A program made the translations under genes and the position numbers. From a bacterium (GTDB lineage: Bacteria; CLD3; SB21), in assembly GCA_013360215.1 (NCBI GenBank), contig JABWCP010000013.1, positions 1 through 64,000 of the forward strand: a DNA stretch of 64,000 bases. Direction: 5' to 3'. The first letter of the stretch is position 1. Each line of letters starts with the position of its first letter. The notes beneath the pieces are model-generated. The model was not told the DNA's origin and did not search any database. It saw nothing but the letters and a program-made list of their open reading frames with translations. Positions 1 through 64,000 of the stretch are shown here, piece by piece.

Positions 1-1330
1 TGGATAAAATAAAGGGCGCTTTGGGATTGAGTACGGAAAACGCTTCATATATAGAGGTATTCAGTTTGTTTTGTTTTTGGAGTGAAGCGGTTTTGGAGGC
101 CGCGATCGGTTTGTAAAAACTATAGATGTCCAAATCCGGATCGTGCAGCGGACGAAATCCCGATTCCGATTCAATCCGGCGATGCAATTCCTGTGCGGCC
201 AGAAAATTTTCCGTCAAAAGTCGTCCGTAGCCTTCTTCGTGCAAAGGCATCATACGGTGCGTGAGCCAGCAGCCTGCCGCGACGGCACCCGGGCGCGAAC
301 CTTCCAGCGTAAACATGCCGATATTGGGTTTGTCTTTGATGTGGTAAGTGTACGGCGCTGTATTGAGTATCGCCGATCGCAAGGCTTCGTTTTTGTAGAT
401 CACCGCGCCGCATCCGTATCCCAAAGCACCCTGTTTGTGCGGATCGATCGTGATCGAGTCGGCATCTTTCATGGCCCGCAGACTGAGGTAAACTTCCGGT
501 TTGACGACCAGCGCGACATCCGCATAGGGCTTGATACGACCGGATGCATCTAAAATAATCGAACGCGAATATCCGCCGTAGGCCGCGTCAAGATGCAGGT
601 GAAACCCGTAACGTTTTCGGAGTTGCAAAATACCTTCGATATCATCCACCGCGCCGACACCCGTCGTGCCGATATTGGCGACCACCATCATGGTTTTCTT
701 TTTTTTCAGTACAGACTCAAGCACATCGAGGTCCATGCGAAATTTGGAATCGGTGGGAATTTCCACACCGTCCTGTATGGCAAGGATGGAGCAAATGCGT
801 TTCCATGAATAGTGTGCCATATGTGAAAAAAGTACGGCGCCTGGTTTTTTATGTTTTTGTGTATATACGTCGCGTACCGCCCACATGGCTTCGGTATTGG
901 CAAGCGAACCGCCGCTGCACAGATGGCCCCAACCTTTTTTGAAACCGCAGAGGTTGAGCAAATCCTGTACGCATTCCATTTCAAGTTCGGTCGTGATCGG
1001 CCCGCCTTCATAGGCATGGTTATTGGGATTGGTAAGTATGGCGGCAAGATAACCCAGAGTGGAACTGAGCGCCGGATCTTTGAGCATCTGGGCCGCATAA
1101 CGCGGCGAAAAATACGGTGGCTGGTGACTGAGGCGCTCCAAAAGTACATCCAGATGTTTTTGCAAGGTATTGTCTGAAGGAGTCGCCGAGCGATCAAACA
1201 CCTCCGGATCGTTCGTAAAAAACGTACGCCGCCACGCGGCATGCCAGTCGAGAATTTTGATCAGCGATTCTTGCAAGGCTTCGGCGTTTTCCGCCTTGGG
1301 CCCGAGAAAATTATCGTGCAGTATGGACAT
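1..1330 (-). CDS. Group II PLP-dependent decarboxylase (tyrosine/glutamate decarboxylase-like), 3' end runs off the window
   Basis: Absent from the ORF track because there is no stop in the window. Manual translation from ATG 1330 gives MSILHDNFLGPKAEN...PYFSPRYAAQM...NPNNHAYEGGP...GHLCSGGSLANTEAMW...HYSWKR...GTTGVGAVD...HLDAAYGG...DSITIDPHKQG...TLEGSRPG. DPHK carries the PLP lysine. Confidence 0.9.
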   Translation of the reverse strand, partial: MSILHDNFLGPKAENAEALQESLIKILDWHAAWRRTFFTNDPEVFDRSATPSDNTLQKHLDVLLERLSHQPPYFSPRYAAQMLKDPALSSTLGYLAAILTNPNNHAYEGGPITTELEMECVQDLLNLCGFKKGWGHLCSGGSLANTEAMWAVRDVYTQKHKKPGAVLFSHMAHYSWKRICSILAIQDGVEIPTDSKFRMDLDVLESVLKKKKTMMVVANIGTTGVGAVDDIEGILQLRKRYGFHLHLDAAYGGYSRSIILDASGRIKPYADVALVVKPEVYLSLRAMKDADSITIDPHKQGALGYGCGAVIYKNEALRSAILNTAPYTYHIKDKPNIGMFTLEGSRPGAVAAGCWLTHRMMPLHEEGYGRLLTENFLAAQELHRRIESESGFRPLHDPDLDIYSFYKPIAASKTASLQKQNKLNTSIYEAFSVLNPKAPFILS

Positions 1331-1378
1331 GAAAAACCCCTCAAGCACGTGAAAAAAAGAGAACTGTATTAAAACAAA

Positions 1379-1600
1379 CTAATTCATATGACATCCGCAA
1401 CCCGCGCCGCATCCGCCGCCCATCATGGGCATACTTTCGCCGGAGCTTTTGCAGTCGGCGGCAAAAACGGAAAGTTTGCGGTTGGCTTCATGGGCACGGC
1501 ATTTGGGACACTCGACTTCCGATGCGTCAAACGTGCTGGAATGGAAAAGTTCAGAAAAATCCGTACCGCATTTTTTGCAGGTAAATTCATAGATCGGCAT
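1379..1600 (-). CDS. FmdB-family zinc-ribbon protein
   Basis: MPIYEFTCKKCG...CPKC with Gly/Cys-rich tail; AAGGA RBS upstream. Confidence 0.88.
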   Translation of the reverse strand: MPIYEFTCKKCGTDFSELFHSSTFDASEVECPKCRAHEANRKLSVFAADCKSSGESMPMMGGGCGAGCGCHMN

Positions 1601-1638
1601 ACACGATATTCCTTAGATGATGTTAACAATGAATAATG

Positions 1639-3372
1639 TTAGGGTTTGTCGGGCAAAATATCAACGGGGGCATCTTCGGTGATGACTTTATCTAATTTTT
1701 CCAGTAACGCAACATGCGGATGCCCATATTCGTGCGCCAGCTCGATGTTGGGTTTCAGATTCCATCCGGGCGAGCGCACACCGGATCGGATCAGCTTTAA
1801 TATCTCATCATAACAAGCATCGCCATATTGATTGTAGAAATTGGCAAACCGGTAAAACCAAAGTTCGAGATAAATTTGTTTTTCATCATGTGTTGGGAAT
1901 AGGAACGCTTCATAAATTTTAGTTTCTGCGTTAGGAAATTCACGCTTCCAAATTAACAATTGAGCGAAATTTCCAAAAATGATTGGGTTTATTGTTCCAA
2001 GATTTATGGCTTTAGAATAACATATTGCGGCTTCGTTATCATTTTGTCGTATAGTGTGGAGGAATATACCGTAATTTCCATAATTATCAGGGTTTTCGGG
2101 ATCAAGCTCTATCGCCTTTTTGTAATATTTTTCAGCGGCTTTATAATCTTTTTTTATTCGATTTAGGAAATTAGCGTAATTACCATTGATGTAAAAATGA
2201 TTTTGGTTTTTGCTTAAAGCTTTTTTATAAAAATTTTCAGCTTTATTGTAATCCTTAAGAAAATCTGTTAAGAAAACTGCATAACAAGCATATAAATCTA
2301 TGCTATCAGGAAATTCGTTAAGACCTTTTTTGTATATATTGTCTTTTTTATTCAAGTCTTCCTCGGTCTGTACTTCAAGCTCGACGCTCCACCACGTTCG
2401 GGGTGATTTTTCGTTTGCAAGCTCTATCGCTCTTGCAGTTTCGGAGGCAGGATTTTCTTTGTTGAGCTTTTCGATTTGTTCGCGGTATTTTTTTACGCGT
2501 TGTTCGGCTACATTTAAGATTTCTTGATCCTTTAATGGATATTCCATTTCTTCATTCAGGGCGATCATCATTTCATCAAAACCATCAATGGGAATAAGAA
2601 AACCTTTTTGATTGGTTAGCAATTTTTGTATGCGTTCGTTAGGTTTACCATCTGCATTCCTGTAACACCAAAACATACCATTGGAGAGGGTTTCGAGTTT
2701 CTCAAGATATTCCATCAGGCTACCGTCATTACCTCCATAGCCGATAAAAACCGGTGTATAGTAGCGGAATATCTGCGTCAGAGCATCAATCCAGCCTTTG
2801 GCCAATTGCGACGTTTCATCTGAATTACTTTTGGGGGCGAATAATAAATCACGGTGTATTTTGGCGATCACCGGGCGGTTGCTAGTGATGTTGATAAAAC
2901 TCGCAAGAGACTCATGCCCGCATACTAGGGGCTTTCGCCGCGTGTAGATAAACAAGGCATCTTCTGTCATGCTGTCAAAGTTGGTTGTAATAACCACGTT
3001 GTGAAACGGATCCGTCAAAAGCTGTGCTAATACGGAATAACCGATACTCGGCTCTTTGCCATCCATGATTTGCACAAGCTGTGCAAACCCTTCTTCGGGA
3101 TTAAGTTTAAAGCGTTTATCGTAGATAGCGGAGTAGTGGATCGCAGGATTTTGTTCATCGATATTTTTTTCGTTTTTCCACTGATCGTATTGCGAGCGAT
3201 ATAGATTTTTTATCCCATCCAACCAAATCTTGGCAAGTTCTCCGCCGGTAGGGATACCGGATTGTTTGGAGGCTCCGGCACCGAGAATAAAACAATACTT
3301 CCGCACAGACACCCGATCACGATGAAACTGTTTGATAAATGTCTGGAGTTCTATTTCTTCTGGTTGATCCAT
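1639..3372 (-). CDS. SIR2-like (SIR2_2, NADase-type) domain fused to TPR repeats and a C-terminal helical domain
   Basis: FILGAGASKQSGIP, VITTNFD, KIH and FIGYGG sirtuin-fold motifs; TPR-like repeats (KAENFYKKAL, AAEKYYKKAIELDP, EAAICYSKAI). Confidence 0.88.
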   Translation of the reverse strand: MDQPEEIELQTFIKQFHRDRVSVRKYCFILGAGASKQSGIPTGGELAKIWLDGIKNLYRSQYDQWKNEKNIDEQNPAIHYSAIYDKRFKLNPEEGFAQLVQIMDGKEPSIGYSVLAQLLTDPFHNVVITTNFDSMTEDALFIYTRRKPLVCGHESLASFINITSNRPVIAKIHRDLLFAPKSNSDETSQLAKGWIDALTQIFRYYTPVFIGYGGNDGSLMEYLEKLETLSNGMFWCYRNADGKPNERIQKLLTNQKGFLIPIDGFDEMMIALNEEMEYPLKDQEILNVAEQRVKKYREQIEKLNKENPASETARAIELANEKSPRTWWSVELEVQTEEDLNKKDNIYKKGLNEFPDSIDLYACYAVFLTDFLKDYNKAENFYKKALSKNQNHFYINGNYANFLNRIKKDYKAAEKYYKKAIELDPENPDNYGNYGIFLHTIRQNDNEAAICYSKAINLGTINPIIFGNFAQLLIWKREFPNAETKIYEAFLFPTHDEKQIYLELWFYRFANFYNQYGDACYDEILKLIRSGVRSPGWNLKPNIELAHEYGHPHVALLEKLDKVITEDAPVDILPDKP

Positions 3373-3491
3373 AGAGAGTATTTGTATTCAATTCCCTTAT
3401 TGATTCTTTAAACCGTTTTTTTTAGTTTGCAGGGCTTAAAGAAATTATAAATCAATCTAAAATAAAATGTTATCTCAATCAAGAGGATCGA

Positions 3492-4892
3492 ATGGAGACC
3501 AAAAATTTTGATGTAGTGGTATTGGGCGGAGGCCCCGGCGGTTATGTGGCAGCGATCAAAGCGGCACAACTCGGTTTCAAAACAGCGGTTGTCGAACGTG
3601 AAAAAATCGGCGGCGTCTGCGTTAATATCGGTTGTATCCCGACGAAAGCATTGCTGAAAAATGCCGAGATGTATGAACACATGAAACATGCCACTGAATG
3701 GGGTTATTCCTTTGACAACCTCAAGTATGACTACAAAGCCATCATCAAACGCAGTCGCGATGTGGCTGATGCCAATTCCAAAGGCGGCGATTTTTTGATG
3801 AAAAAAAATAAAATCGAAGTCATCAAAGGAACCGGCAAATTTCTTGATAAAAGTACACTCAGTGTGGCCGATGCGACCGGTAAAGAAATTGTTCAGGTCA
3901 AAGGTAAACATATCATCATTGCCACCGGTGCCCGCGCACGTATGCTGCCCAATCTGAAAGCCGACGGCAAACGCATTCTGACCAGCACGGAAGCGATGAC
4001 CAATACCGAACAGCCGAAGTCCATCGTTATCATCGGCGCCGGCGCGATCGGTATTGAGTTTGCCTATTTCTTCAATACCTTCGGCACGAAAGTAACTGTC
4101 GTAGAAATGATGCCGACGATTTTGCCCGTTGAAGATGAAGAAGTCTCCAACACGCTGCTCAAAGTGCTCCAGAAAAAAGGCATGGATATTCACACCGATA
4201 CCAAAGTCGAAAAAGTGGATGTCGGCGCCAATAATGTTACCGTAACCGTTTCCAGTAAAGGTAAAACACAGACGATCACGGCTGATCAATGCCTCGTCGC
4301 CATCGGCGTGCAGGGCAATACGGAAAATATAGGCCTTGAAAAAATCGGTGTTACCGTCGAAAAAGGTTGGATCAAAGTGGACGAGTATTACCGCACCAAT
4401 GTACAGGGTGTTTATGCGATCGGCGATATCATCGGCGCACCGTGGCTCGCTCACGTGGCCTCCCATGAAGGTATCGTCTGCGTCGAAAAAATTGCTGGAA
4501 AAGATACCCACCCGATTGATTATTCATCCATTCCCGGATGTACCTATTGCCAGCCGCAAGTCGGCAGCATCGGTCTGACGGAGAAAAAGGCGCGTGAAAA
4601 AGGGTATGATATCAAGGTCGGTAAATTTCCTTTTTCCGCCAGCGGCAAAGCCCGTGCGATCGGCGAACGTGACGGTTTCGTAAAAGTGATTTTTGATGCG
4701 AAGTACGGCGAATTGCTCGGCGCACATATCTTAGGTTCCGAAGCGACGGAAATGATCGCCGAATACGGCATCGCGAAGTCTTTGGAGTCCACATATAAAG
4801 AAATAGGCAATACGATTCACGCCCATCCGACGTTGTCTGAAGCGATGATGGAAGCGGCGCTGGATGCGTACAAAGAAGCCGTTCATATTTGA
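3492..4892 (+). CDS. lpdA: Dihydrolipoyl dehydrogenase (E3)
   Basis: GGGPGGY FAD site, CVNIGC redox disulfide, GAGAIG NAD site, HAHPTLSE. Confidence 0.97.
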   Translation: METKNFDVVVLGGGPGGYVAAIKAAQLGFKTAVVEREKIGGVCVNIGCIPTKALLKNAEMYEHMKHATEWGYSFDNLKYDYKAIIKRSRDVADANSKGGDFLMKKNKIEVIKGTGKFLDKSTLSVADATGKEIVQVKGKHIIIATGARARMLPNLKADGKRILTSTEAMTNTEQPKSIVIIGAGAIGIEFAYFFNTFGTKVTVVEMMPTILPVEDEEVSNTLLKVLQKKGMDIHTDTKVEKVDVGANNVTVTVSSKGKTQTITADQCLVAIGVQGNTENIGLEKIGVTVEKGWIKVDEYYRTNVQGVYAIGDIIGAPWLAHVASHEGIVCVEKIAGKDTHPIDYSSIPGCTYCQPQVGSIGLTEKKAREKGYDIKVGKFPFSASGKARAIGERDGFVKVIFDAKYGELLGAHILGSEATEMIAEYGIAKSLESTYKEIGNTIHAHPTLSEAMMEAALDAYKEAVHI

Positions 4893-10019: not shown

Positions 10020-12413
10020 TCAATCGTTTTTCAAAACGACCACGGTGACACCCGTATCCCCTTCGCCGTACTGCCCCAACCGATAGGAATCAATTCGGCG
10101 GTCTCGTTTTAAAAATTCATTAATACGATTTCTCAGTATGCCGGAGCCTTTGCCGTGGAGTAATGTCACTTCTCTGAACCCTAGTATTCCCGCATCGGTA
10201 AGATATTTATCTACTTCATACAGCGCTTCTTCGGCAGTCAAACCTCGTAAATCAAGTTCTTGCCCGATATCATCAGTATCCCATTGGATGGTCTGACGTG
10301 CGGGAGAAGAGTTTTTCTCACCGGCGTTTTGAGCAGGGGAAAGTTGGCGAGGGTCTATTTTAAGACGGATGGCTCCAACCGCGATAAGCGCCTGACCGCC
10401 GTTTCCGGGAGATTCGATGACCGTTCCTTCGATATCCATGTGCCGTATATAAACACGGTCGCCTTTTTTGACATGAAGCGGTTCAGATACGAATTCAGTT
10501 AAATTTTTTTCATCAGCTAAGGCTTGATCCGTGGCGAGCCGTTCGTTTTGTATGGAGGCTTTGGCAGATTTGATGGCTTCTTTGGAGGCCTCGGCTTTTT
10601 TGATTTCCAAAATCGCTGCTTCGATTTTTTTATTGGCTTCAGCCAGTACGCGTTGCTTCTCTTCTAAAATGGTCTGTTTAAGTGTGCGCTCCTTCTGCTT
10701 TAGTTCTTTGGACCGATCATTGTAAAACTTAACCATGCCTTCAAGCCCGGTTTTCTCGCGATTGATATCGGCCAGGTCGGTTTCATATTTTTTGACGCGG
10801 GATTGAAGATCATGTATCAGTGTTTCGAGTCGTAAGGCCTCGGTGCCGGATAAGCTTTTAGCGCGTTCGATGATATCAGGATGTAAACCGATACGCCTGG
10901 AAATTTCCATCGCATAGCTGCTGCCGGGAATACCCGGTCTGAAAACGTAGGTCGGTTCTAACGTAGCTTGATCAAATTCCATGGAGCCGTTTTCAACACC
11001 CGGCGTATTATGAGCAAACGCTTTCAATTCGCCGTGATGCGTCGTTACGATCGACACGGCGCGGTGAGTGTTAAAATATTCAAGCAACGCAATAGCAAGA
11101 GAAGCGCCTTCTTTGGGATCGGTCCCACTTCCCATTTCGTCAATAAGAATCAGTGTTTGATCATCCAGTTGGGAAGCCATTTCGGACAAATGCTGCATAT
11201 GCGAGGAGAAAGTGGAGAGATCGTTTTCGATGGACTGATCGTCGCCGATGTCGGCAAAAAGTCTGGTAAAAAGACTCAGTTCGCTGTCAAATCCGCACGG
11301 AATCAACAAACCGCATTGCGTCATCAATACGAAAAGTCCGACGGTCTTGAGGGCAACGGTTTTTCCACCGGCATTGGGACCGGAAATAATGAGTGTACGA
11401 AAATTTTTTCCGATCTCTATATCCAGCGGTATCACGGGACGCCTTTGATCCGGCATCTTCTGATTTTCTTTATGCAGCAGCAGCGGGTGAAATCCTTTTT
11501 TAATTCGAATGTATCCGCTGGTATTGAGTTTGGGTTTGATGCCTTGAAGCGCATTACAAAACCGTGCTTTGGCGTACAAAAATTCGATCATGGTTGCAAT
11601 GTCGATGTTTTCATTCAGCGCGTGACGGTCTGTGCGAATCGCATCGGCGATATCGATCAAAATGCGTTCGACTTCTCTTTGTTCGTCGATGAGTAAACGG
11701 CGCATTTCATTGTTGAGTTCGAGCCCCTCGGCCGGTTCAATGAAAACTGTTTGACCGCTGGACGACGTATCATGCACAAAACCGCGAACGGTATTCTTAT
11801 ATTCATCCTTAACAGGTATGACCATGCGCCCGTCGCGCATAGTTACGATAGCCTCCTGTGAATATCCGGCATCGGCAAATTGCCTGGCAAGAGATTCTAG
11901 TTTTTTTCGAAGACTGTGCGATTTGTTGTCAATATCGCGACGCAATTGGCGCAGCTTCGGACTGGCGTGATCTTTGATGTTGCCGTGATCGTCGATCGCA
12001 TGATGAATGGCATCTTCGATAGTTCGCAGATCGTGCAACGTATCCGTGTTGCGCGAAAGCAAAGGGTATTTTTCATGGCGATGGCGTACATAATTTTTTA
12101 TTTTGCGTGTCGTTTCGACAAATCGTGCTACAAGCAATAAATCGGATGAAGGTAAAAAAGTTCCGTGCGAATGGATGCGATCTAAAAGTTGACGTATATC
12201 GGTCAAGGTATCAATCGGAAATGTATCATCATAACGCAATAGGTCAGCCATTTCGACCAACATATCCAAACGTTTTTCGATCAAATCCGCATCCGTCATG
12301 GGTTTCATAGCCTGGACACAGGCGTCCGCCATAGGTGTGAGCACACATTGGCGAATCAATTCTTTGAGTTTATCAAACTCGAGCGGCTGTATATCAAAAT
12401 GTGTCGTCATCAC
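10020..12413 (-). CDS. mutS2: Endonuclease / ribosome-rescue factor MutS2
   Basis: GPNAGGKT Walker A, DIGDDQSIENDLSTFSSHM, DEMGSGTDP, coiled coil, C-terminal Smr domain (LDLRG...HGKGSG). Confidence 0.96.
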   Translation of the reverse strand: MMTTHFDIQPLEFDKLKELIRQCVLTPMADACVQAMKPMTDADLIEKRLDMLVEMADLLRYDDTFPIDTLTDIRQLLDRIHSHGTFLPSSDLLLVARFVETTRKIKNYVRHRHEKYPLLSRNTDTLHDLRTIEDAIHHAIDDHGNIKDHASPKLRQLRRDIDNKSHSLRKKLESLARQFADAGYSQEAIVTMRDGRMVIPVKDEYKNTVRGFVHDTSSSGQTVFIEPAEGLELNNEMRRLLIDEQREVERILIDIADAIRTDRHALNENIDIATMIEFLYAKARFCNALQGIKPKLNTSGYIRIKKGFHPLLLHKENQKMPDQRRPVIPLDIEIGKNFRTLIISGPNAGGKTVALKTVGLFVLMTQCGLLIPCGFDSELSLFTRLFADIGDDQSIENDLSTFSSHMQHLSEMASQLDDQTLILIDEMGSGTDPKEGASLAIALLEYFNTHRAVSIVTTHHGELKAFAHNTPGVENGSMEFDQATLEPTYVFRPGIPGSSYAMEISRRIGLHPDIIERAKSLSGTEALRLETLIHDLQSRVKKYETDLADINREKTGLEGMVKFYNDRSKELKQKERTLKQTILEEKQRVLAEANKKIEAAILEIKKAEASKEAIKSAKASIQNERLATDQALADEKNLTEFVSEPLHVKKGDRVYIRHMDIEGTVIESPGNGGQALIAVGAIRLKIDPRQLSPAQNAGEKNSSPARQTIQWDTDDIGQELDLRGLTAEEALYEVDKYLTDAGILGFREVTLLHGKGSGILRNRINEFLKRDRRIDSYRLGQYGEGDTGVTVVVLKND

Positions 12414-13652
12414 TCAAAGTATGGAAACGATTAATTGATGGAGGTGATCGCGATCCAACATGACGGCATCCACGGTGTCGTTTTTGTCTTTATCTCCGTC
12501 GTTTTCCGGTATATCGAGGAGCGCTTGTGCATAAGCCATATGCGAGAGAACGCCGGAACTTTGTTCGCCGGATAATGAAGCCTTGATCTGACCATCATCA
12601 ATATAAAGGCGCGCTCTCAAAAAATGCCGAAGCCCGGGTTTTTTGGAAACAGGGTGATCCAAACGGACCGGAATGCGCAAAATCGGCGACGGTTGACTTG
12701 CCATGCGGGCTATTGCTGGTGTCACATACAGTTCGAAGCATACAAGCGAACTCACCGGGTTTCCCGGTAATCCGAAAAACAATTTCCCCCCTTTTGATCC
12801 GAAAACCATAGGTTTTCCCGGTTTTTGCCGGATTTTCCAAAAATGGATTTTTATGCCCGCTTTTTCAACTGCTTGGCGCACATAATCTTTTTCGCCCATG
12901 GATACGCCGCCCGTTGTGATGATGACGTCTGCTTTTAATGCTTTTTGTATTTGAGCTGCGATGGCTTTGGGTGTATCGCGCGCAATTCCCAGATTGATTA
13001 CGGGGTAACCGGCTTTTTGTAATAAAGCGGTCAAGGCAAAATGTGTGCTGGCGCGTATCTTGCCGGGTTTTAGTTTTTCTTCAACGGATAACAATTCGTC
13101 ACCGGTCGCAAGCAATGCGATGGTCGGTTTGGTTTGAATACGAATTTTTGATTTTCCGATAGACGCTAAAACACCAAGATCATAAGGTCGTATGATGTGA
13201 TCGCGTGAAAAAACGATCTGGTTTTTCTGAATATCGGATCCGGCTTTACGGATGTGGTCACCTTCGTGGGCCGGTTTTTCTATATGAACCCATTGGCCGT
13301 CGCGACGCGTATGCTCTACCATGACGATAGCTGTCGTTCCTCGCGGAACAGGCGCACCGGTCATGATTTGAATAGCTGTTCCGGGGGTCAATTTTTTTGT
13401 TGATACATTGCCGGCATGAACTGTGTCCAAAACCTTTAGCATACACGGTTGTTTGGTTTTGCTTGTATCGGAAGCAATTACAGCGTAACCGTCAACACCA
13501 CTATTATCCCAAGGTGGTATCATTTCGCGGGACACGATATTTTCTGCGAGGGCATAACCGCAGGCATCCGTAAAAGGTGCCGTTCTGATCGCAAGCGGTT
13601 TAACTTTGGATAATATGGTGTCCAGCGCTTCATCAACGGATATCATAGTCAC
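12414..13652 (-). CDS. moeA: Molybdopterin molybdenumtransferase (gephyrin-like)
   Basis: PPWDNSGVDGYA, IMTGAPVP, TGDEL, TTGGVSMGEKD, KPGKP, GLPGNPVS. Confidence 0.95.
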   Translation of the reverse strand: MTMISVDEALDTILSKVKPLAIRTAPFTDACGYALAENIVSREMIPPWDNSGVDGYAVIASDTSKTKQPCMLKVLDTVHAGNVSTKKLTPGTAIQIMTGAPVPRGTTAIVMVEHTRRDGQWVHIEKPAHEGDHIRKAGSDIQKNQIVFSRDHIIRPYDLGVLASIGKSKIRIQTKPTIALLATGDELLSVEEKLKPGKIRASTHFALTALLQKAGYPVINLGIARDTPKAIAAQIQKALKADVIITTGGVSMGEKDYVRQAVEKAGIKIHFWKIRQKPGKPMVFGSKGGKLFFGLPGNPVSSLVCFELYVTPAIARMASQPSPILRIPVRLDHPVSKKPGLRHFLRARLYIDDGQIKASLSGEQSSGVLSHMAYAQALLDIPENDGDKDKNDTVDAVMLDRDHLHQLIVSIL

Positions 13653-21350: not shown

Positions 21351-22241
21351 TTACTTCTTATTCGCTTTCTTAAAACGTGTAATCAATTTTTTCATCTCTG
21401 CATCTTCCGTGATATTTTCACTCAATGTGTAAAACCGGTTAGTGTGGTTTATTATTTTACCGGATTTCAAATACAATGTAAGCTTTCCGACTTTAGTGCC
21501 ATTGCCGCCGGCTTGTACGATATACCTGTTTTCGTCGACGATAGGTTCTTCGATTTCAACCTGATCGTGTGCACCGACGATCATATCAATATCCGGAAAA
21601 TCCGATAAAATCAACTTGTCTTCTTCTGAACCGGCATGAGACAAAACAATAAGAATATCCACTCTTGAGCGAATATCTTTTATTACTGCATTCAAACGTT
21701 CTCTTTCATTGACAGAGTGTACTCCGGGTTGCTTGTTTTTCGGAAAATATCGAAACGCGGAAAATGGTGTATAACCGATGATTCCGATCTTATAGTTCTC
21801 TCTAGTTACGATCTGATAAGGTTGAGCAATGGGTCGGTTATCATGCCAAAGTGTAGATGAAGTCAATGGTAACTTAGATCGGGATACGATACGTTCAAAA
21901 AAATCGTATCCATTGGCAAACTCATTATCACCCGGATTTACAGCATCATAGGAAAGCAATTCGTATAATCGTATCGTCATAGAATCCTGCTGAGGAGAAA
22001 AACCAAATTGATTTAAAAAATCTCCGGCATCTACAAAAATAACCGCTCTCTCGTTTTTCCTTATGTTATCGAATATAAGCTTTCTTCGTGCAAGCCCACC
22101 CAAAGGTTCCTCTCCGCAATCGCATGCTTCGATATATCCGTTGGTATTATTGGTATAAACAAAAGAAACAGAATCCTGAGCCACTGCGCTATAAGATAAT
22201 AGTAACGGTGCGATGATATAAATCAGGATAAAAAAAACCAT
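21351..22241 (-). CDS. UshA/5'-nucleotidase-like metallophosphoesterase N-domain protein (CxC-GGLARR type), secreted
   Basis: NGYIEACDC...LGGLARR, VDAGD, GDNEF, LSHAG, VGAH; no C-terminal nucleotidase domain. Confidence 0.8.
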   Translation of the reverse strand: MVFFILIYIIAPLLLSYSAVAQDSVSFVYTNNTNGYIEACDCGEEPLGGLARRKLIFDNIRKNERAVIFVDAGDFLNQFGFSPQQDSMTIRLYELLSYDAVNPGDNEFANGYDFFERIVSRSKLPLTSSTLWHDNRPIAQPYQIVTRENYKIGIIGYTPFSAFRYFPKNKQPGVHSVNERERLNAVIKDIRSRVDILIVLSHAGSEEDKLILSDFPDIDMIVGAHDQVEIEEPIVDENRYIVQAGGNGTKVGKLTLYLKSGKIINHTNRFYTLSENITEDAEMKKLITRFKKANKK

Positions 22242-22353
22242 GTCGCAATAGCGCGACGGACTGATACAAGTGTATTGGTACATTTTTGCGACGCTTAATA
22301 TAATGTTACAATTGAAATCTATAATTTATAACACTTAAAAGTAAATCATTTTT

Positions 22354-22369
22354 TGGCATAAGACTTGAT
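22354..22369 (+). promoter_or_regulatory. Candidate sigma54 (-24/-12) promoter
   Basis: TGGCATAAGACTTGAT, GG-N10-GA spacing, about 100 nt upstream of the OMP gene. Confidence 0.45.
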
Positions 22370-22471
22370 ACATTTGATAAGTGTTATCGGTTCTTCACAT
22401 TTTAAAAATCACATAGTTACTTAAAAAAATCGGTTCTCTTTTTTATAATAAACTAAATGTAGGAGTTACAC

Positions 22472-22978
22472 ATGAAAAAATTAGTTGTTCTCGCTTTGTT
22501 AGTTATGCTAGCCACAGCGATTCAAACCAATGCACAAATGAAAGCCGGAAGTATGCGTCCCGCGTTGGAGTTGAATTTTGGAGGTCTTGGTCTTGGTTAT
22601 GGTGCCAGCTTCGAATATGGTATCACAGACAAAATCAGTGCACGCGCCAGCGCAAATATTTCAAGTTACAAAACCGGCGGTGATGAATGGTCATTGATCC
22701 CCATTGATGCGGTTGGTGTTTATAATGTTGATGATAGTAAGTATGCCATGCTGGGCGTTACGTGGACAACTTTCTCAGTTGATCCGAGCATTGGAAAAAA
22801 GGAAAGTTCTTCGTCGTTCGGCGTAGTTGCTGGTGGAGGTTATCGCTATAAACTCAATGATAAAATTTCAGTCAACGGAGAAGGAAAGTACCGTGTGATC
22901 ACACTTGAATCAGGTGCTTATAAACTTTCTGTAGCATGGTACACTGTCGGCGCAGGCTTCTCTTACGCTTTGAATTAA
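22472..22978 (+). CDS. Small outer-membrane beta-barrel protein
   Basis: AGGAG RBS, signal peptide, amphipathic strands, C-terminal VGAGFSY. Confidence 0.85.
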   Translation: MKKLVVLALLVMLATAIQTNAQMKAGSMRPALELNFGGLGLGYGASFEYGITDKISARASANISSYKTGGDEWSLIPIDAVGVYNVDDSKYAMLGVTWTTFSVDPSIGKKESSSSFGVVAGGGYRYKLNDKISVNGEGKYRVITLESGAYKLSVAWYTVGAGFSYALN

Positions 22979-23001
22979 CTTATCCAGACTTCAGGTATTT
23001 C

Positions 23002-23038
23002 AAGCCTCGCTGACTGTTGGCAGCGGGGCTTTTTTTTT
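23002..23038 (+). terminator. Intrinsic terminator
   Basis: AAGCCTCGCTG / CAGCGGGGCTT + T-tract. Confidence 0.85.
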
Positions 23039-23262
23039 AATATGTTCAAATCTACATAATTTTCGAAGCAAACATCGGTGTGGTGTAGATCAATGAAGAG
23101 ATTCTCCCTCTTCGAAATTATCTGGCAAAATATCATACCATGACAATAATCGGTTGAGGTAAAAATTCATGTTGTTTTTTAAACTAAAAACTAATAAATG
23201 TGTCGCGTATTTTTTATCTCTAATCTCATGGTGTGTCAATTTCCAAAAAAAAGGGAGTATTT

Positions 23263-23679
23263 ATGGTAGCAAAAGCATTGATTCCACTAATAGTGATAAC
23301 AGCGTTGATTGTGATTTCATGTTCGGAGGATGATTCGATCGGGGACGAGGGTTCTCTCACGGCACTTGATACGGTAAATGTGTCCATTTCCAAAGATTCG
23401 ACTTGTATTGTAGCATTAATAGTGAAAGCGACTGTAACCATTACGAGCAAAAAAACCGGAATACCGGTATCCGGATTTTCAGTTAATATAGAATCCAAAG
23501 CTTATTACCGTACAGCTTGCGGATCGCCGGGATCGCCTGATTTGGCTGATTATGCTAATGGTAGCGGAACTACTAATGCATCAGGTAAAGTAACGATTGA
23601 TTTGATTTTTGCTCCTTCAAGCTACGAAGGCGGTATCTATAAATATAAACATGTAGATTACGTCAGAGTAAAACCTTAA
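23263..23679 (+). CDS. Hypothetical lipoprotein
   Basis: GGGAG RBS, lipobox VISC, beta-rich body. Confidence 0.75.
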   Translation: MVAKALIPLIVITALIVISCSEDDSIGDEGSLTALDTVNVSISKDSTCIVALIVKATVTITSKKTGIPVSGFSVNIESKAYYRTACGSPGSPDLADYANGSGTTNASGKVTIDLIFAPSSYEGGIYKYKHVDYVRVKP

Positions 23680-23703
23680 ATGTCTTACTGCAAAGCAAAC
23701 TTT

Positions 23704-23743
23704 AAATTCCACTTGGAGAGGGTTTCACAAGTGGAATTTTTTT
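23704..23743 (+). terminator. Intrinsic terminator
   Basis: AAATTCCACTTG / CAAGTGGAATTT + T-tract. Confidence 0.8.
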
Positions 23744-23775
23744 ATTCAGAAAATCGAATTAAGAAAAGATGTTAC

Positions 23776-23967
23776 GGTCAAATAAATCGTCGCTTAAAGA
23801 TGATGGTGAGTAAATGCAGCGAAAGTAGTTTCTTGTGCTGATTTAAGACAACCGTCTCCCGTGAAGATAGAAAAGTTGCGATTTATCTCACACCCATCGT
23901 CATTATTTGGGCCTTTGTTCAAAAATCCTCGTTTTAAAGGAAGCTTATGAATTTCCTTTTTTAAACG
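23776..23967 (+). ncRNA. Candidate structured RNA / leader upstream of the frameshifted OMP gene
   Basis: Five nested helices with G-U wobbles on the + strand, then a terminator-like hairpin. Confidence 0.4.
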
Positions 23968-24071
23968 ATATTTCTATGGAGTCACGACTTTTAATAAAAG
24001 ATTGAAATTCTTTGCCATTTATCTTAATCTGTGGGTGCGTAGTTAAATCTCTAAAAAAAATGAGGAATTCC

Positions 24072-61577: not shown

Positions 61578-62458
61578 AAAAATATATCTTTTGTTATGTG
61601 GTAATAATATCTGAAGTGTTGGGTCGGTGGGGCCTGGCACAAAATCCGGATCAAGCCAAATTCTGGTATGATAAAGGACGATCCGCGTATCTTCGTTTTA
61701 TGTCAGAAGACTACAAGACGGCGTTGTCTTATTATGAAAGGTCGACTGCTGCGGATTCCAACTACGCACCGGCTTTTGCCGGAAAAGCGGAGGCGTTGAC
61801 GCTTTTAGCTTTGGAAAAAGAACAAAATGGTTTGGCAGCAGAAGTTGATTTTACCCATGCGTTACGATCAGCCCAACAAGCGATAGCTAAAAAACCAGAC
61901 CAAAACTTAGGTTACCGTGCTCTTGCACAAGCATATCTGAATATGGACCCCAAAACATACGGCGAAAAAGCGCATGATGCGTTACAGCGTGCCATAGAGT
62001 TGGATTCAACCGATGCGGAAAGTTATTTTTTATTGTGGCTTCTGACCGAAAACGACAAACCAAACAGCCCGTTTTTGCGATTATCATTGAAGTTAGATCC
62101 TAATTCGTTTCAAACTCACTATGCTTTAGGCCAATACTGGTCTCGTAATAAACAGCCGGATAAAGCGATAGACGAGTACAAGTTATGTATACGGATTAAT
62201 CCGGACAATTACCGCTCTTATTATTCACTTGGCAATGTATACTCACAAATCAAACGCTACGATATGGCCGTGGAAGAATACGAGAAAGCTATTGCAATAA
62301 ATAAAAACCTGTACGAAGCGTATTTTTATGTCGGTGTAGCGTATTATTATTTAGATAAAAACAAAAAAGCACAACAACGACTCTCTCAATATATAGAGAT
62401 GCAACCTAATCCTAAATATAAGCCACAGGCCGAACAGCTTCTCATGGATATGAAATAA
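61574..62458 (+). CDS. Secreted TPR protein
   Basis: Signal-like N-terminus; multiple TPR repeats. Confidence 0.85.
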   Translation: MKKYIFCYVVIISEVLGRWGLAQNPDQAKFWYDKGRSAYLRFMSEDYKTALSYYERSTAADSNYAPAFAGKAEALTLLALEKEQNGLAAEVDFTHALRSAQQAIAKKPDQNLGYRALAQAYLNMDPKTYGEKAHDALQRAIELDSTDAESYFLLWLLTENDKPNSPFLRLSLKLDPNSFQTHYALGQYWSRNKQPDKAIDEYKLCIRINPDNYRSYYSLGNVYSQIKRYDMAVEEYEKAIAINKNLYEAYFYVGVAYYYLDKNKKAQQRLSQYIEMQPNPKYKPQAEQLLMDMK

Positions 62459-62528
62459 AACGCTTTGAGCGCGAAAGTAACGCGGCATCCTAAAATAGGG
62501 CATGGCCATATTTGGAGTGCATATGGTA

Positions 62529-63014
62529 TTATACTTTCCAACGATATTGATACGCTAGCGGGCCTGGCTTCTTACATTCTACTATGTTACTGTTTCCAAA
62601 ATGAAGTTTATTTAGGTGAATTATGATATGATATCCATCTTTCGATATTATCCATAGATTGGGTTTTAGTTTATAAGGTTTTAAACTATAATCAGGATCA
62701 AGGAATACCCCTGTTTTCTTTCTTAACTCCTTAAGTGTAATGTCAATATTATAATTATTTTGAATCGAACTCGATACAAAAGCTCTACCGTTGGAAAGAT
62801 AGAGAAAATGATGATAAAACTCTGTGAATGAATCGCCATCAGGGTTGCCGTGCTTTCGGTGAGTCAAAACATGTAGTCCCTGCTGGTGTTTATCAAAATA
62901 AACGCACTCAAGGCTCGTTGGGTATTTAAATACTAATAAGTAGAATATCCAAAATGGAACGATCAAAATAGATATTACAAAAAAAACTCCAGCGTCCATA
63001 GGTGTCGTATCCAT
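62529..63014 (-). CDS. Hypothetical membrane-anchored protein (low GC)
   Basis: N-terminal TM helix; coupled to the upstream ORF. Confidence 0.6.
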   Translation of the reverse strand: MDTTPMDAGVFFVISILIVPFWIFYLLVFKYPTSLECVYFDKHQQGLHVLTHRKHGNPDGDSFTEFYHHFLYLSNGRAFVSSSIQNNYNIDITLKELRKKTGVFLDPDYSLKPYKLKPNLWIISKDGYHIIIHLNKLHFGNSNIVECKKPGPLAYQYRWKV

Positions 63015-63016
63015 TT

Positions 63017-63385
63017 CTATTTTACTTCAATCTGTCCACAACCGCTTAGCTCGGATTCGTCGTTTACAACTATCGCAGCCGTAAATACACCACTTTCCGC
63101 CACTTCTATAAACGTTGTAAAATAATCTAATTGATCTGCTTGTATTTCGGAGATTTTATACTTCAAATTGTTTTTATACCATTGTACTTTTAACGGTATA
63201 AAATCACTGCATCTTTTCTCAAAGTGCGCATACAATTTGACGGTATCCTTTTTATCAATATCAAAAAAAGAACAATAATCGCTATTTCGAATTTGCTGAT
63301 ATGGCGTAACGAACAGATGGGTGCAGTCGCTCATGGAAGTAAATTGCTGTGCACATAAAATCGAAGCGTATATTATAATAATCAA
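63017..63385 (-). CDS. Hypothetical secreted Ig-like protein (low GC)
   Basis: Pattern V.W..N...G.F...IV resembles the DUF2914-like domain at 26798. Confidence 0.55.
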   Translation of the reverse strand: MIIIIYASILCAQQFTSMSDCTHLFVTPYQQIRNSDYCSFFDIDKKDTVKLYAHFEKRCSDFIPLKVQWYKNNLKYKISEIQADQLDYFTTFIEVAESGVFTAAIVVNDESELSGCGQIEVK

Positions 63386-63394
63386 TTTATTATC

Positions 63395-64000
63395 TCATTT
63401 TGAGATAGGGCCGATATACTTTTTAGCAATTACCAAATGATCAAAGAATATAGAGCCGATGTGATTAGCATTATTATTATCATTAAAATTTTTCAACCAA
63501 ATATAATTTAAGTTTAACGCGGGGTCATTTCGCCACTGAAATCCCTCGAACGGTATGCCTGAACCCTCTGTAAAAAATGCTTCACTCCAAGTCCCAACAG
63601 GAAACATGTAGCCCAGATGAAATATTTGAACACCATCAACCCACAGTTTCAGTTCGCCATTAGAAGCCGAAACCGGACTATTTAATTTAATCATCATTTC
63701 GATGCAGTGCCACGAGGTCAAACTAATATTATTGGCGGTCGAGTTATTAATAAACTCATTTCCATAATAGGATCCAGCATTCGGCCCGGTAGTGTAGGGG
63801 TGCATGCCCATCCAATAATTATAAAATCCAAATTTCGAATAGTCGGCGGGATTTTGTCTTGCAGCACCTGTTATTTCTGTACCTACGTGAAATTCTACAT
63901 TGCCAAGCGGTTTGACGCCGGACTTTTGTCCGGCTGTTGGCGATGGTGGATTTTTGCCGCCGACATAAACACCGGAATGGTGATATGCAGTGGTATTGTC
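63395..64000 (-). CDS. Polysaccharide-lyase/LamG-like beta-sandwich protein, 5' end outside the window
   Basis: Frame is open to the window edge (DNTTAYHHSGVYVGG...YNYWMGMHP); WHCIEMMIKLNS...NGELKLWVDG, FFDHLVIAKKYIGP. Confidence 0.7.
   Translation of the reverse strand, partial: DNTTAYHHSGVYVGGKNPPSPTAGQKSGVKPLGNVEFHVGTEITGAARQNPADYSKFGFYNYWMGMHPYTTGPNAGSYYGNEFINNSTANNISLTSWHCIEMMIKLNSPVSASNGELKLWVDGVQIFHLGYMFPVGTWSEAFFTEGSGIPFEGFQWRNDPALNLNYIWLKNFNDNNNANHIGSIFFDHLVIAKKYIGPISK

Follow-up and report, generated by a model that had tools for sequence, protein, structure and literature searches.

A strain-variable SIR2-TPR gene as a candidate single-gene, NAD+-depleting defence system in a bacterium of the CLD3 lineage

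Introduction

Among the described defence systems with a SIR2 domain, SPARSA consists of a Sir2-APAZ protein and a short prokaryotic Argonaute (pAgo) encoded next door, ThsA of Thoeris joins its SIR2 NADase to a SLOG domain and is accompanied by a TIR protein (ThsB), and SIR2-HerA includes a HerA helicase. Avs5 (AVAST type 5), the published SIR2-STAND-TPR system, unites a SIR2 effector, a STAND nucleoside triphosphatase (NTPase) and a C-terminal sensor of tetratricopeptide repeats (TPR) in one protein, as described in passages of PMC12931631. DSR2 is a single polypeptide of about 1000 amino acids with an N-terminal zinc-less SIR2 domain and a HEAT-like solenoid as all-helical repeat sensor, without NTPase or partner gene; its trigger, according to parts of PMC11850899, is the tail tube protein. 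Here we describe a gene located at positions 1639 to 3372 of a 64,000-nucleotide stretch of bacterial DNA (positions 1 to 64,000 of contig JABWCP010000013.1, assembly GCA_013360215.1, lineage CLD3; SB21), referred to as the window. The gene encodes a SIR2-TPR protein that lacks the features by which each of the named SIR2 systems compared with it is defined, and with moderate confidence we regard it as a ligand-triggered, NAD+-depleting single-gene defence that would work like DSR2.

Related architectures have been touched upon previously. In the FAM118 sirtuin paper, the legend to Extended Data Fig. 2 mentions TPR among the extra domains of SIR2_2 proteins, and sections of Rousset et al. (2022) report STAND-plus-repeat proteins with TIR, SIR2 or nuclease heads as well as unspecified SIR2 systems in P4/P2 hotspots. 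The same sections contain no STAND-less SIR2-TPR protein, though the supplementary tables of that work could hold one. Likewise, our search of the full-text literature found no description of a STAND-less SIR2-TPR system, though supplementary tables may list one. Neither SIR2 nor sirtuin occurs in the text of Kaur et al. (2020; eLife 52696), the Pfam name TPR_TmcB led to unrelated papers only, and Porphyromonas SIR2/TPR led only to unrelated genes in a Treponema denticola array study.

Architecture of the SIR2-TPR protein

The gene (P0001; 1639..3372, minus strand) is an intact open reading frame with an ATG start codon and encodes a protein of 577 amino acids which is composed of four parts, all on the same strand. 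Residues 1-275 (2548..3372) form a SIR2_2 domain, the predicted NADase effector, that was recognized by Pfam, PADLOC, the family profile and Foldseek. It is followed by a helical linker conserved in the family alignment (residues 276-339; 2356..2547), a TPR-like array (residues 340-492; 1897..2355) and a C-terminal cap (residues 493-577; 1642..1896) with the family pattern ELWFYRYA...G.RS.GW...GHP...IT, which is defined by family alignment, profile search and its isolated fold. The Pfam family SIR2_2 (PF13289) scores 36.3 bits over residues 126-247 (gathering cut-off 24.5), and the protein is the only PF13289 match in the whole genome. Between residues ~336 and 458 the families TPR_17, TPR_1, TPR_8, TPR_2, TPR_19 and TPR_14 exceed their Pfam cut-offs. 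Neither an NTPase family (at E<=1) nor a SLOG domain was matched by Pfam in the protein, and nothing was assigned past about residue 508.

These data agree well with a first description made from the DNA letters (the sequence-only reading), which had noted an N-terminal sirtuin fold without the CxxC pairs, followed by a coiled linker and TPRs with no STAND/NACHT ATPase. All quoted motifs are present in the translation (GAGAS at residues 31-35, TTNFD at 129-133, KIH at 171-173 and IGYGG at 210-214), and no CxxC occurs anywhere in its 577 residues, in which cysteines are found only at positions 27, 151, 236, 363, 451 and 520. The motifs are not chance resemblances because G31, G33, S35, N131, F132, D133, H173 and G211-D216 are invariant both in an alignment of 25 sequences (A1) and in an alignment of 29 sequences covering the SIR2 part (A5). 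Asn131 (codon 2980..2982) and His173 (codon 2854..2856) align with the TTNFD and KIHGD motifs of SPARSA Sir2, and their catalytic role is predicted by analogy to known defence sirtuins. A DSR2 H171A mutant, to be compared with His173, is named in the titles of PDB entries among the Foldseek matches.

An AlphaFold2 model built from 25 family sequences (mean pLDDT 86.9) shows a Rossmann-type alpha/beta N-terminal domain, linker helices between residues 282 and 336 (282-305, 310-322 and 327-336), nine repeat helices (340-491) and C-terminal helices (498-564). The array corresponds to about 4-5 TPR-like repeats, four of which were detected with a period of 35 residues (anchors spaced 35, 35 and 35). 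The C-terminal domain had been called unrecognized, and indeed no Pfam family covers it. However, this description needs to be refined: the segment, with ELWFYRFA at residues 503-510 and RSPGWNLKPNI at 533-543, is a conserved helical cap that invariably accompanies TPR arrays of this type and is also found behind other N-terminal domains. Within A1, residues E503, W505, Y507, A510, L527, S534, W537 and H551 of the cap are invariant. When folded alone it forms five helices with very high confidence (pLDDT 94.2, pTM 0.85). A specific solved relative was not found, as Foldseek gave no match at E<=1e-3 and VIA a best Z of 5.8 to designed or generic helical repeats; this does not show that the fold is new.

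Relationship to named SIR2 systems

Judged from sequence and modelled fold, the effector is an immune-type, zinc-less SIR2 domain because its profile and fold resemble those of SPARSA, DSR2 and ThsA and because it falls far below the cut-off of a deacylase model. The family SIR2 profile (29 sequences) matched Sir2-APAZ of SPARSA (8jkz, 8jl0, 8in8) over profile positions 8-272 with an E-value of 2.5e-25, and the motifs GAGxS, TTNFD, KIHxD and GY(G/S)GxD were all aligned between the two. The next profile matches were KomC (4e-4) and ThsA (4.7e-3). With the whole model, Foldseek also ranked SPARSA first (3.5e-9), then DSR2 (3.3e-7) and ThsA (4.6e-7), and the matches of the repeat half were designed consensus TPRs, OGT and PilF. 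The best PADLOC models were those of short-pAgo-associated SIR2 proteins (E 2e-31; residues 7-339 at most). By contrast, the NCBIfam deacylase model NF001753 yielded 15.8 bits against a cut-off of 243. The SIR2_2 domain is thus a putative NAD+ glycohydrolase of the short-Argonaute-associated (SPARSA) sirtuin lineage, and the immune-type character proposed in the sequence-only reading stands.

The same results bear on the idea that the protein is a protein-modifying sirtuin, i.e. a deacylase or ADP-ribosyltransferase whose TPR array recruits a client, and that it acts as a regulator of, or a toxin on, a specific target instead of as a bulk NADase. TPR arrays are typical binders of peptides or proteins, and the catalytic Asn/His set is common to all these chemistries. 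Moreover, some proteins of the SIR2 superfamily involved in conflict ADP-ribosylate their targets, as stated in passages of PMC9503650. Yet the zinc module is absent, the deacylase model stays far under its cut-off, and the nearest relatives by sequence and fold are NADases, which makes protein modification improbable.

Beyond the SIR2 domain the protein departs from each of the named systems. SPARSA provides the nearest homologue of the SIR2 domain by sequence profile, Foldseek and PADLOC. However, the window protein has no APAZ domain, because the PADLOC alignments stop at about residue 305-339 (those to the Aga_SIR2 models end at profile positions ~320-355 of 524-1030), and its C-terminal half consists of TPRs. 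The neighbouring genes are fmdB and lpdA, and a short pAgo gene is not next door. DSR2 is the best analogue for the working mode: both are one polypeptide with an N-terminal zinc-less SIR2 domain of similar fold and an all-helical repeat sensor, and neither has an NTPase or partner gene. By contrast, 35-residue TPRs plus a cap in a protein of 577 residues take the place of the long HEAT-like solenoid, and the SIR2 sequence is nearer to SPARSA than to DSR2. The tail tube protein cannot be assumed to be the trigger of the SIR2-TPR protein.

With Avs5 the protein shares the combination of a SIR2 effector and a C-terminal TPR sensor, and its TPR-cap unit also occurs behind STAND NTPases. It differs in having neither a STAND nor any other P-loop domain between SIR2 and TPRs; therefore, ATP-dependent oligomerization cannot be the switch. 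ThsA has a similar SIR2 NADase fold, but the window protein contains no SLOG domain and there is no TIR (ThsB) gene among its flanks. The flanks also lack a HerA helicase gene, and no neighbour is conserved over 80 loci of relatives, in contrast to SIR2-HerA. Like the window protein, the PADLOC candidate PDC-S65 is a single gene with a SIR2 domain, and its profiles of 592 and 503 positions indicate a comparable length. It aligns with residues 106-297 (E 2.5e-19), i.e. with the SIR2 core only, leaving TPRs and cap unaligned, and is therefore a parallel SIR2 fusion of a different family. Models for Dsr, Avs, Thoeris and HerA were absent from the PADLOC matches (for Dsr, none at E<=1). PADLOC thus gives no full-length match, and the earlier statement that the gene fits no assignable named system is borne out.

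Accessory status of the gene

The gene had been described as a lone accessory unit between lpdA and an fmdB-decarboxylase pair, and comparison with relatives and co-occurring strains bears this out. Its neighbour on one side is a gene for an FmdB-type zinc-ribbon protein (1379..1600, minus strand; Pfam Zn_ribbon_8, 50.4 bits), an ancestral neighbour and not a partner, followed by a Pfam-identified pyridoxal phosphate-dependent decarboxylase gene (2..1348, minus strand). On the other side lies a core gene of the dihydrolipoyl dehydrogenase type (lpdA; 3492..4892, plus strand; Pfam Pyr_redox_2 and Pyr_redox_dim); a GTPase gene is also among the flanks according to Pfam. In 13 of 13 relatives from the same family, fmdB and lpdA are divergent at a distance of 110-214 bp without a SIR2-TPR gene, as compared with 1891 bp occupied by this gene in the window genome. 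The lpdA-type gene was matched in all 14 other genomes of the family (13 of them full-length, 78-89% identity). When 40 relatives were examined, 14 of which belong to the same family, the SIR2 part matched only the window's own genome, and the TPR part gave only weak matches (best E 4.7e-8), all starting from query residue 310 or beyond.

Metagenome contigs delimit the insertion precisely. In the independent DNA run X6, one contig joins position 1600 to 3458 and skips 1857 bp (as judged from the two matching sides of the joined record), contigs of higher depth stop exactly at 1600 and 3458, and the depth of the SIR2-TPR gene is below that of its flanks. In run X19, contigs of a 97-99% identical strain end at 1600/3458 and continue with unlike sequence. 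From these contig breaks we define a strain-variable cassette of 1857 bp (1601..3457) between fmdB and lpdA, which begins at the base adjoining the start codon of fmdB, ends 34 bp short of the lpdA start and is missing from strains sampled in the same metagenomes. The cassette has a GC content of 0.39 compared with 0.449 in the rest of the window, and in 43 of 46 family loci with long flanks the GC content of the gene was below that of the flanks (mean difference -0.069). Neither a target-site duplication nor a terminal inverted repeat was found at 1600/3458, and a search of the 64-kb window revealed no tRNA and no Rfam family. The SIR2-TPR gene is thus a strain-variable accessory insertion.

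Family, neighbourhoods and mobile elements

A search of 5.8 billion proteins yielded 2175 matches at E<=1e-3 among 8000 scored candidates. The 120 best homologues are 36-53% identical and 502-952 amino acids long, and they originate from Porphyromonas, other Bacteroidota, Gemmatimonadota, Sulfurimonas, Desulfobacteraceae and others. Their database names are 'tetratricopeptide repeat protein', 'hypothetical protein' or pipeline labels such as PilF and O-mannosyl-transferase. All four parts of the window protein align with 24 full-length or near-full-length homologues, and the family is characterized by a conserved SIR2 domain, a conserved helical linker, a variable number of regular repeats and a conserved cap. 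To judge from these alignments, SIR2-TPR-cap proteins are a large unnamed family. Scanning the genomes of 185,579 species with two family peptide patterns returned 413 stretches, of which 289 encode relatives, and the best 80 loci span Nitrospirota, Chloroflexota, Acidobacteriota, Bacteroidota, Campylobacterota, Planctomycetota, Latescibacterota, several proteobacterial classes and more. At one locus of a Pyrinomonadaceae member (L038:8846-10711), a second SIR2 paralogue of 621 amino acids (E 1.2e-94 to the family SIR2 hidden Markov model) is encoded two genes downstream.

The repeats are exceptionally regular. Across 121 proteins, 886 spacings of 35 residues were counted as opposed to 54 in the next seven classes, and the number of detected repeats per protein ranges from 2 to 13 and follows protein length (r 0.93). 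The lengths of Porphyromonas gingivalis homologues (836, 871 and 906 amino acids) differ in steps of 35, the repeat period; judged by length, they are consistent with TPR copy-number polymorphism within the species.

The 742 neighbours encoded within six genes on either side of the gene at the 80 loci were clustered. The largest cluster is present in only 5 of the 80 loci, and clusters of four loci are mostly from Latescibacterota. No partner gene is conserved, as had been claimed for the window, and the SIR2-TPR gene is a stand-alone unit. In an Ignavibacteriaceae metagenome-assembled genome (MAG), the gene is surrounded by three direct copies of a partly palindromic 40-nt element (L020:9770-9806, 12112-12151 and 12709-12748). 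A MAG from another lineage has a 95% identical element immediately upstream of its homologue (L012:9899-9938). This suggests that non-coding elements flanking the SIR2-TPR gene can move together with it; the window contains no copy of this element.

By tblastn, relatives were found in 32 plasmid records and four phage records. A 32-kb plasmid of Photobacterium toruni encodes a 716-amino-acid 'tetratricopeptide repeat protein' (33.5% identity, 80% coverage), and a Methylobacterium plasmid has full-length matches, including the cap, between insertion sequence elements. The conjugative Rhizobium phaseoli plasmid pRphaR630c (L110:1-17836) carries a full-length relative. There, the gene is part of a same-strand run with genes for an FRG-domain protein, an S8 peptidase, a DUF3616 protein, a NERD-domain kinase and a large ATP-binding protein, and the region looks like an uncharacterized conflict island. 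The integrated Haloferax pleolipovirus Halfgib1 encodes, at its accessory end, a 555-amino-acid 'tetratricopeptide repeat protein' with the family SIR2 domain, the gene lying between those for a winged helix-turn-helix regulator/integrase and a dcm methylase. In the integrated Vibrio Vinavirales element PQ189367 (L109:1354-3228), a stand-alone relative of 624 amino acids adjoins the integrase. The depositors labelled it 'pAgo__SIR2APAZ', and no Argonaute gene is present in the 7.2 kb examined. Automatic defence annotation thus seems to mislabel stand-alone SIR2 proteins of the SPARSA-like lineage. Because family members are annotated only as 'tetratricopeptide repeat protein' or mislabelled SIR2-APAZ, inventories of defence systems miss or misname them.

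The TPR-cap unit outside the SIR2 family

A word-based homology search with residues 478-577 produced 19 candidates and two matches and was replaced by a full search with a cap profile (32 sequences, the window protein as first row), which was scored against 1.84 billion representatives. It recovers 821 clusters at E<=1e-3, of which 422 also reach E<=1e-10, and the cap is nearly always located at the extreme C-terminus. The 150 best matches comprise 61 proteins with the family SIR2 domain, 57 of less than 300 amino acids and 32 long ones without the family SIR2. Of the 57 short proteins 41 begin with methionine; the group probably includes many fragments and may contain some stand-alone proteins. 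In line with the profile search, an Atlas structure search detected the TPR-cap fold, at a TM of about 0.8, among clusters that lack a SIR2_2 annotation (172, 275, 589 and 701 amino acids), and an Atlas feature search that excluded SIR2_2 clusters gave no usable match.

The N-terminal parts of 7 of the 32 long proteins without the family SIR2 were analysed with Pfam. One of them (P0214) contains TIR_2 (25.1 bits, just below the cut-off) and nSTAND1 (35.4 bits, above the cut-off) in front of TPRs and cap. Two others (P0158 and P0204) score 27.1 and 24.0 bits, respectively, for AAA_22 (cut-off 27), with other STAND-like families below their cut-offs, and a fourth (P0186) combines a ParA/MinD-type AAA_31 domain (46 bits) with TPRs and cap. 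In a protein of 666 amino acids (P0213), a DACNH sensor and a DAC diadenylate-cyclase domain precede the unit, which would put synthesis of cyclic di-AMP under the control of the putative TPR-cap sensor. Neither of the remaining two matched an N-terminal family: Pfam recognized nothing in P0253 and, in P0235, only TPR families starting at residue 260. Several other long cap proteins start with segments that, judged by eye, resemble signal peptides or membrane segments. TPRs plus cap are thus a modular unit that is placed behind different N-terminal domains.

Proposed function and alternatives

In the defence that we favour, the N-terminal SIR2_2 domain would act as the NAD+ glycohydrolase and would be kept off by the linker, TPR array and cap, which together would serve as regulatory and sensory unit. 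Binding of a trigger, for which a protein or peptide derived from a phage is the likeliest candidate, might relieve this inhibition and/or drive self-association of the SIR2 domains. NAD+ would then be depleted, and the infected cell would stop supporting replication in the manner of abortive infection. The gene would have been acquired horizontally as a self-contained 1.86-kb cassette that is present in some strains only. A role in conflict is favoured because the TPR-cap unit is shared with TIR-STAND and STAND proteins, the cassette is strain-variable, and relatives reside on plasmids and integrated viruses.

Several observations weigh against this proposal, beginning with the genomic neighbourhoods. 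To look for defence islands, we compared 131 proteins encoded by the first and second neighbours on either side at every second locus with 130 control genes from the same loci that lie 6.5 kb or more away (PADLOC, E<=1e-10). Pfam assigned 151 families to the 131 neighbours, each in at most two members. The majority of these neighbours are housekeeping proteins, with families such as ThiC, TrpA, RNase E/G, Fpg and GDH; families of the conflict type comprise Fic, Schlafen/AlbA_2, PLD-type restriction enzymes and type I-C Cas proteins. PADLOC matched 41 families among the neighbours, and the best 25 of these 41 correspond to roughly 13-15 proteins; the matches listed are SoFic, PDC-S04, PDC-S24, pAgo/SIR2 models, Cas8c, Cas7c, a type I restriction endonuclease, SspH, TIR-TM and PDC-M candidates. 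In the control, 122 families were matched, the best 25 of which correspond to roughly 6-10 proteins, and those listed are mostly redundant type I restriction-modification models from one locus, four generic sigma-54-activator look-alikes, MADS components and one PDC. Enrichment of defence genes, expected for a defence gene, is thus weak: by these approximate counts (about 13-15 of 131 vs 6-10 of 130), it is at most two-fold, and the difference does not convince.

Further reservations concern the sensor and the cassette. Avs proteins have idiosyncratic TPR sensors, whereas the TPRs of the SIR2-TPR family are unusually uniform, adjacent repeats within a protein sharing on average a fraction of 0.68 identical residues and up to 1.0. 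Repeats that are nearly identical would suit a scaffold or ruler more readily than a pocket shaped for binding. The fusions of the unit to membrane N-termini, ParA-type ATPases and a DAC cyclase point to a general ligand-sensing module that is not phage-specific. The repeats are rich in Lys, Asn and Tyr, which may account for part of the low GC content of the gene. In the literature we found no experiment on any member of the SIR2-TPR-cap family. Finally, the array of the window protein is among the shortest and most diverged (4 repeats, adjacent identity 0.32), and the protein could therefore be a weakened member.

The modularity of the sensor and the weak enrichment also feature in an alternative according to which the protein is a ligand-gated, NAD+-consuming switch for the bacterium's own physiology (stress, dormancy or metabolic control), with TPRs and cap sensing an endogenous peptide, protein or metabolite. 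The fusions to a DAC cyclase with DACNH sensor, to a ParA/MinD ATPase and, by eye, to signal-peptide or transmembrane N-termini would fit such a switch, as would the mostly housekeeping neighbourhoods and the presence of a homologue in many P. gingivalis strains. However, the gene is missing from 13 of 13 family relatives and from co-occurring strains, the family is rare and scattered over phyla, and relatives occur on plasmids and beside the integrases of integrated viruses. Moreover, the SIR2 lineage is that of SPARSA, DSR2 and ThsA, and a TIR-STAND protein bears the same TPR-cap unit. Taken together, we regard a physiological switch as possible but rather unlikely.

Given the uniformity of the repeats, one may also speculate, with less conviction still, that the TPR array and five-helix cap are a self-contained, NTPase-free pattern-recognition module in which stackable scaffold arrays would bring the SIR2 heads together in an oligomer or filament with NADase activity. 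The homogenized repeats of variable copy number would then form a ruler instead of a pocket, and capture of a ligand by the cap would pack the arrays side by side. In such a scheme, SIR2, TIR-STAND and STAND NTPases, a DAC cyclase, ParA-type ATPases and membrane anchors would be alternative outputs of a logic that resembles NLR receptors and dispenses with the nucleotide switch.

The short array raises the question of whether the window copy is a decaying, non-functional remnant, i.e. a minimal, diverged array carried along after an old insertion. In addition to its four detected repeats and adjacent identity of 0.32 (the family averages 0.68 and reaches 13 repeats), the length of 577 amino acids places it among the shortest full-length members. 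Nonetheless, the reading frame is uninterrupted and has kept every invariant residue of SIR2 domain and cap. Other full-length members have 541-609 amino acids (P0019, P0022, P0081 and P0083), identical copies of the window protein are present on 15 contigs, and RNA-library contigs cover parts of the gene. We therefore consider decay highly improbable.

Should the favoured defence function hold true, a widespread single-gene NAD+-depletion system would be added to those described, with at least 821 cap clusters and more than 2000 full-protein matches in many phyla. Its sensor, a short, regular and easily engineered TPR array, would make it a simple test case for STAND-free switching of a SIR2 NADase. 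The shared TPR-cap unit ties SIR2, TIR-STAND, DAC and ParA proteins to perhaps one common trigger; thus, identification of one ligand could explain several architectures.

Expression and further features of the locus

Two RNA libraries from a single sample gave contigs that match positions 1653-1896, 1628-1818 and 2369-2551 at 100% identity. These contigs are only compatible with transcription of the SIR2-TPR gene because carry-over of DNA is possible, and the parts of the gene left uncovered in these runs are not evidence of silence. A promoter-like site (ATAACA-18-TATAAT; 10 of 12 consensus positions) is located upstream of the gene at 3444..3473 on the minus strand. It is regarded as weak because the number of promoter-like sites in the region equals the expectation from shuffled sequence. 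Two other low-GC stretches of the window, 22001-24000 (0.376) and 62001-64000 (0.373), encode small secreted or hypothetical proteins and have no obvious defence or mobile character.

The cassette starts beside the start codon of fmdB and has therefore replaced the native promoter region of the fmdB-decarboxylase pair. The stop codon of the SIR2-TPR gene is separated from the fmdB start by 38 bp with no terminator-like site between them, and a promoter-like site (TTGATA-17-TAACAT) is found on the minus strand at 1664-1636, inside the 3' end of the SIR2-TPR gene. An RNA-library contig extends from fmdB to position 1610, 10 nt into the cassette. Transcription of fmdB may thus start within the cassette or result from read-through.

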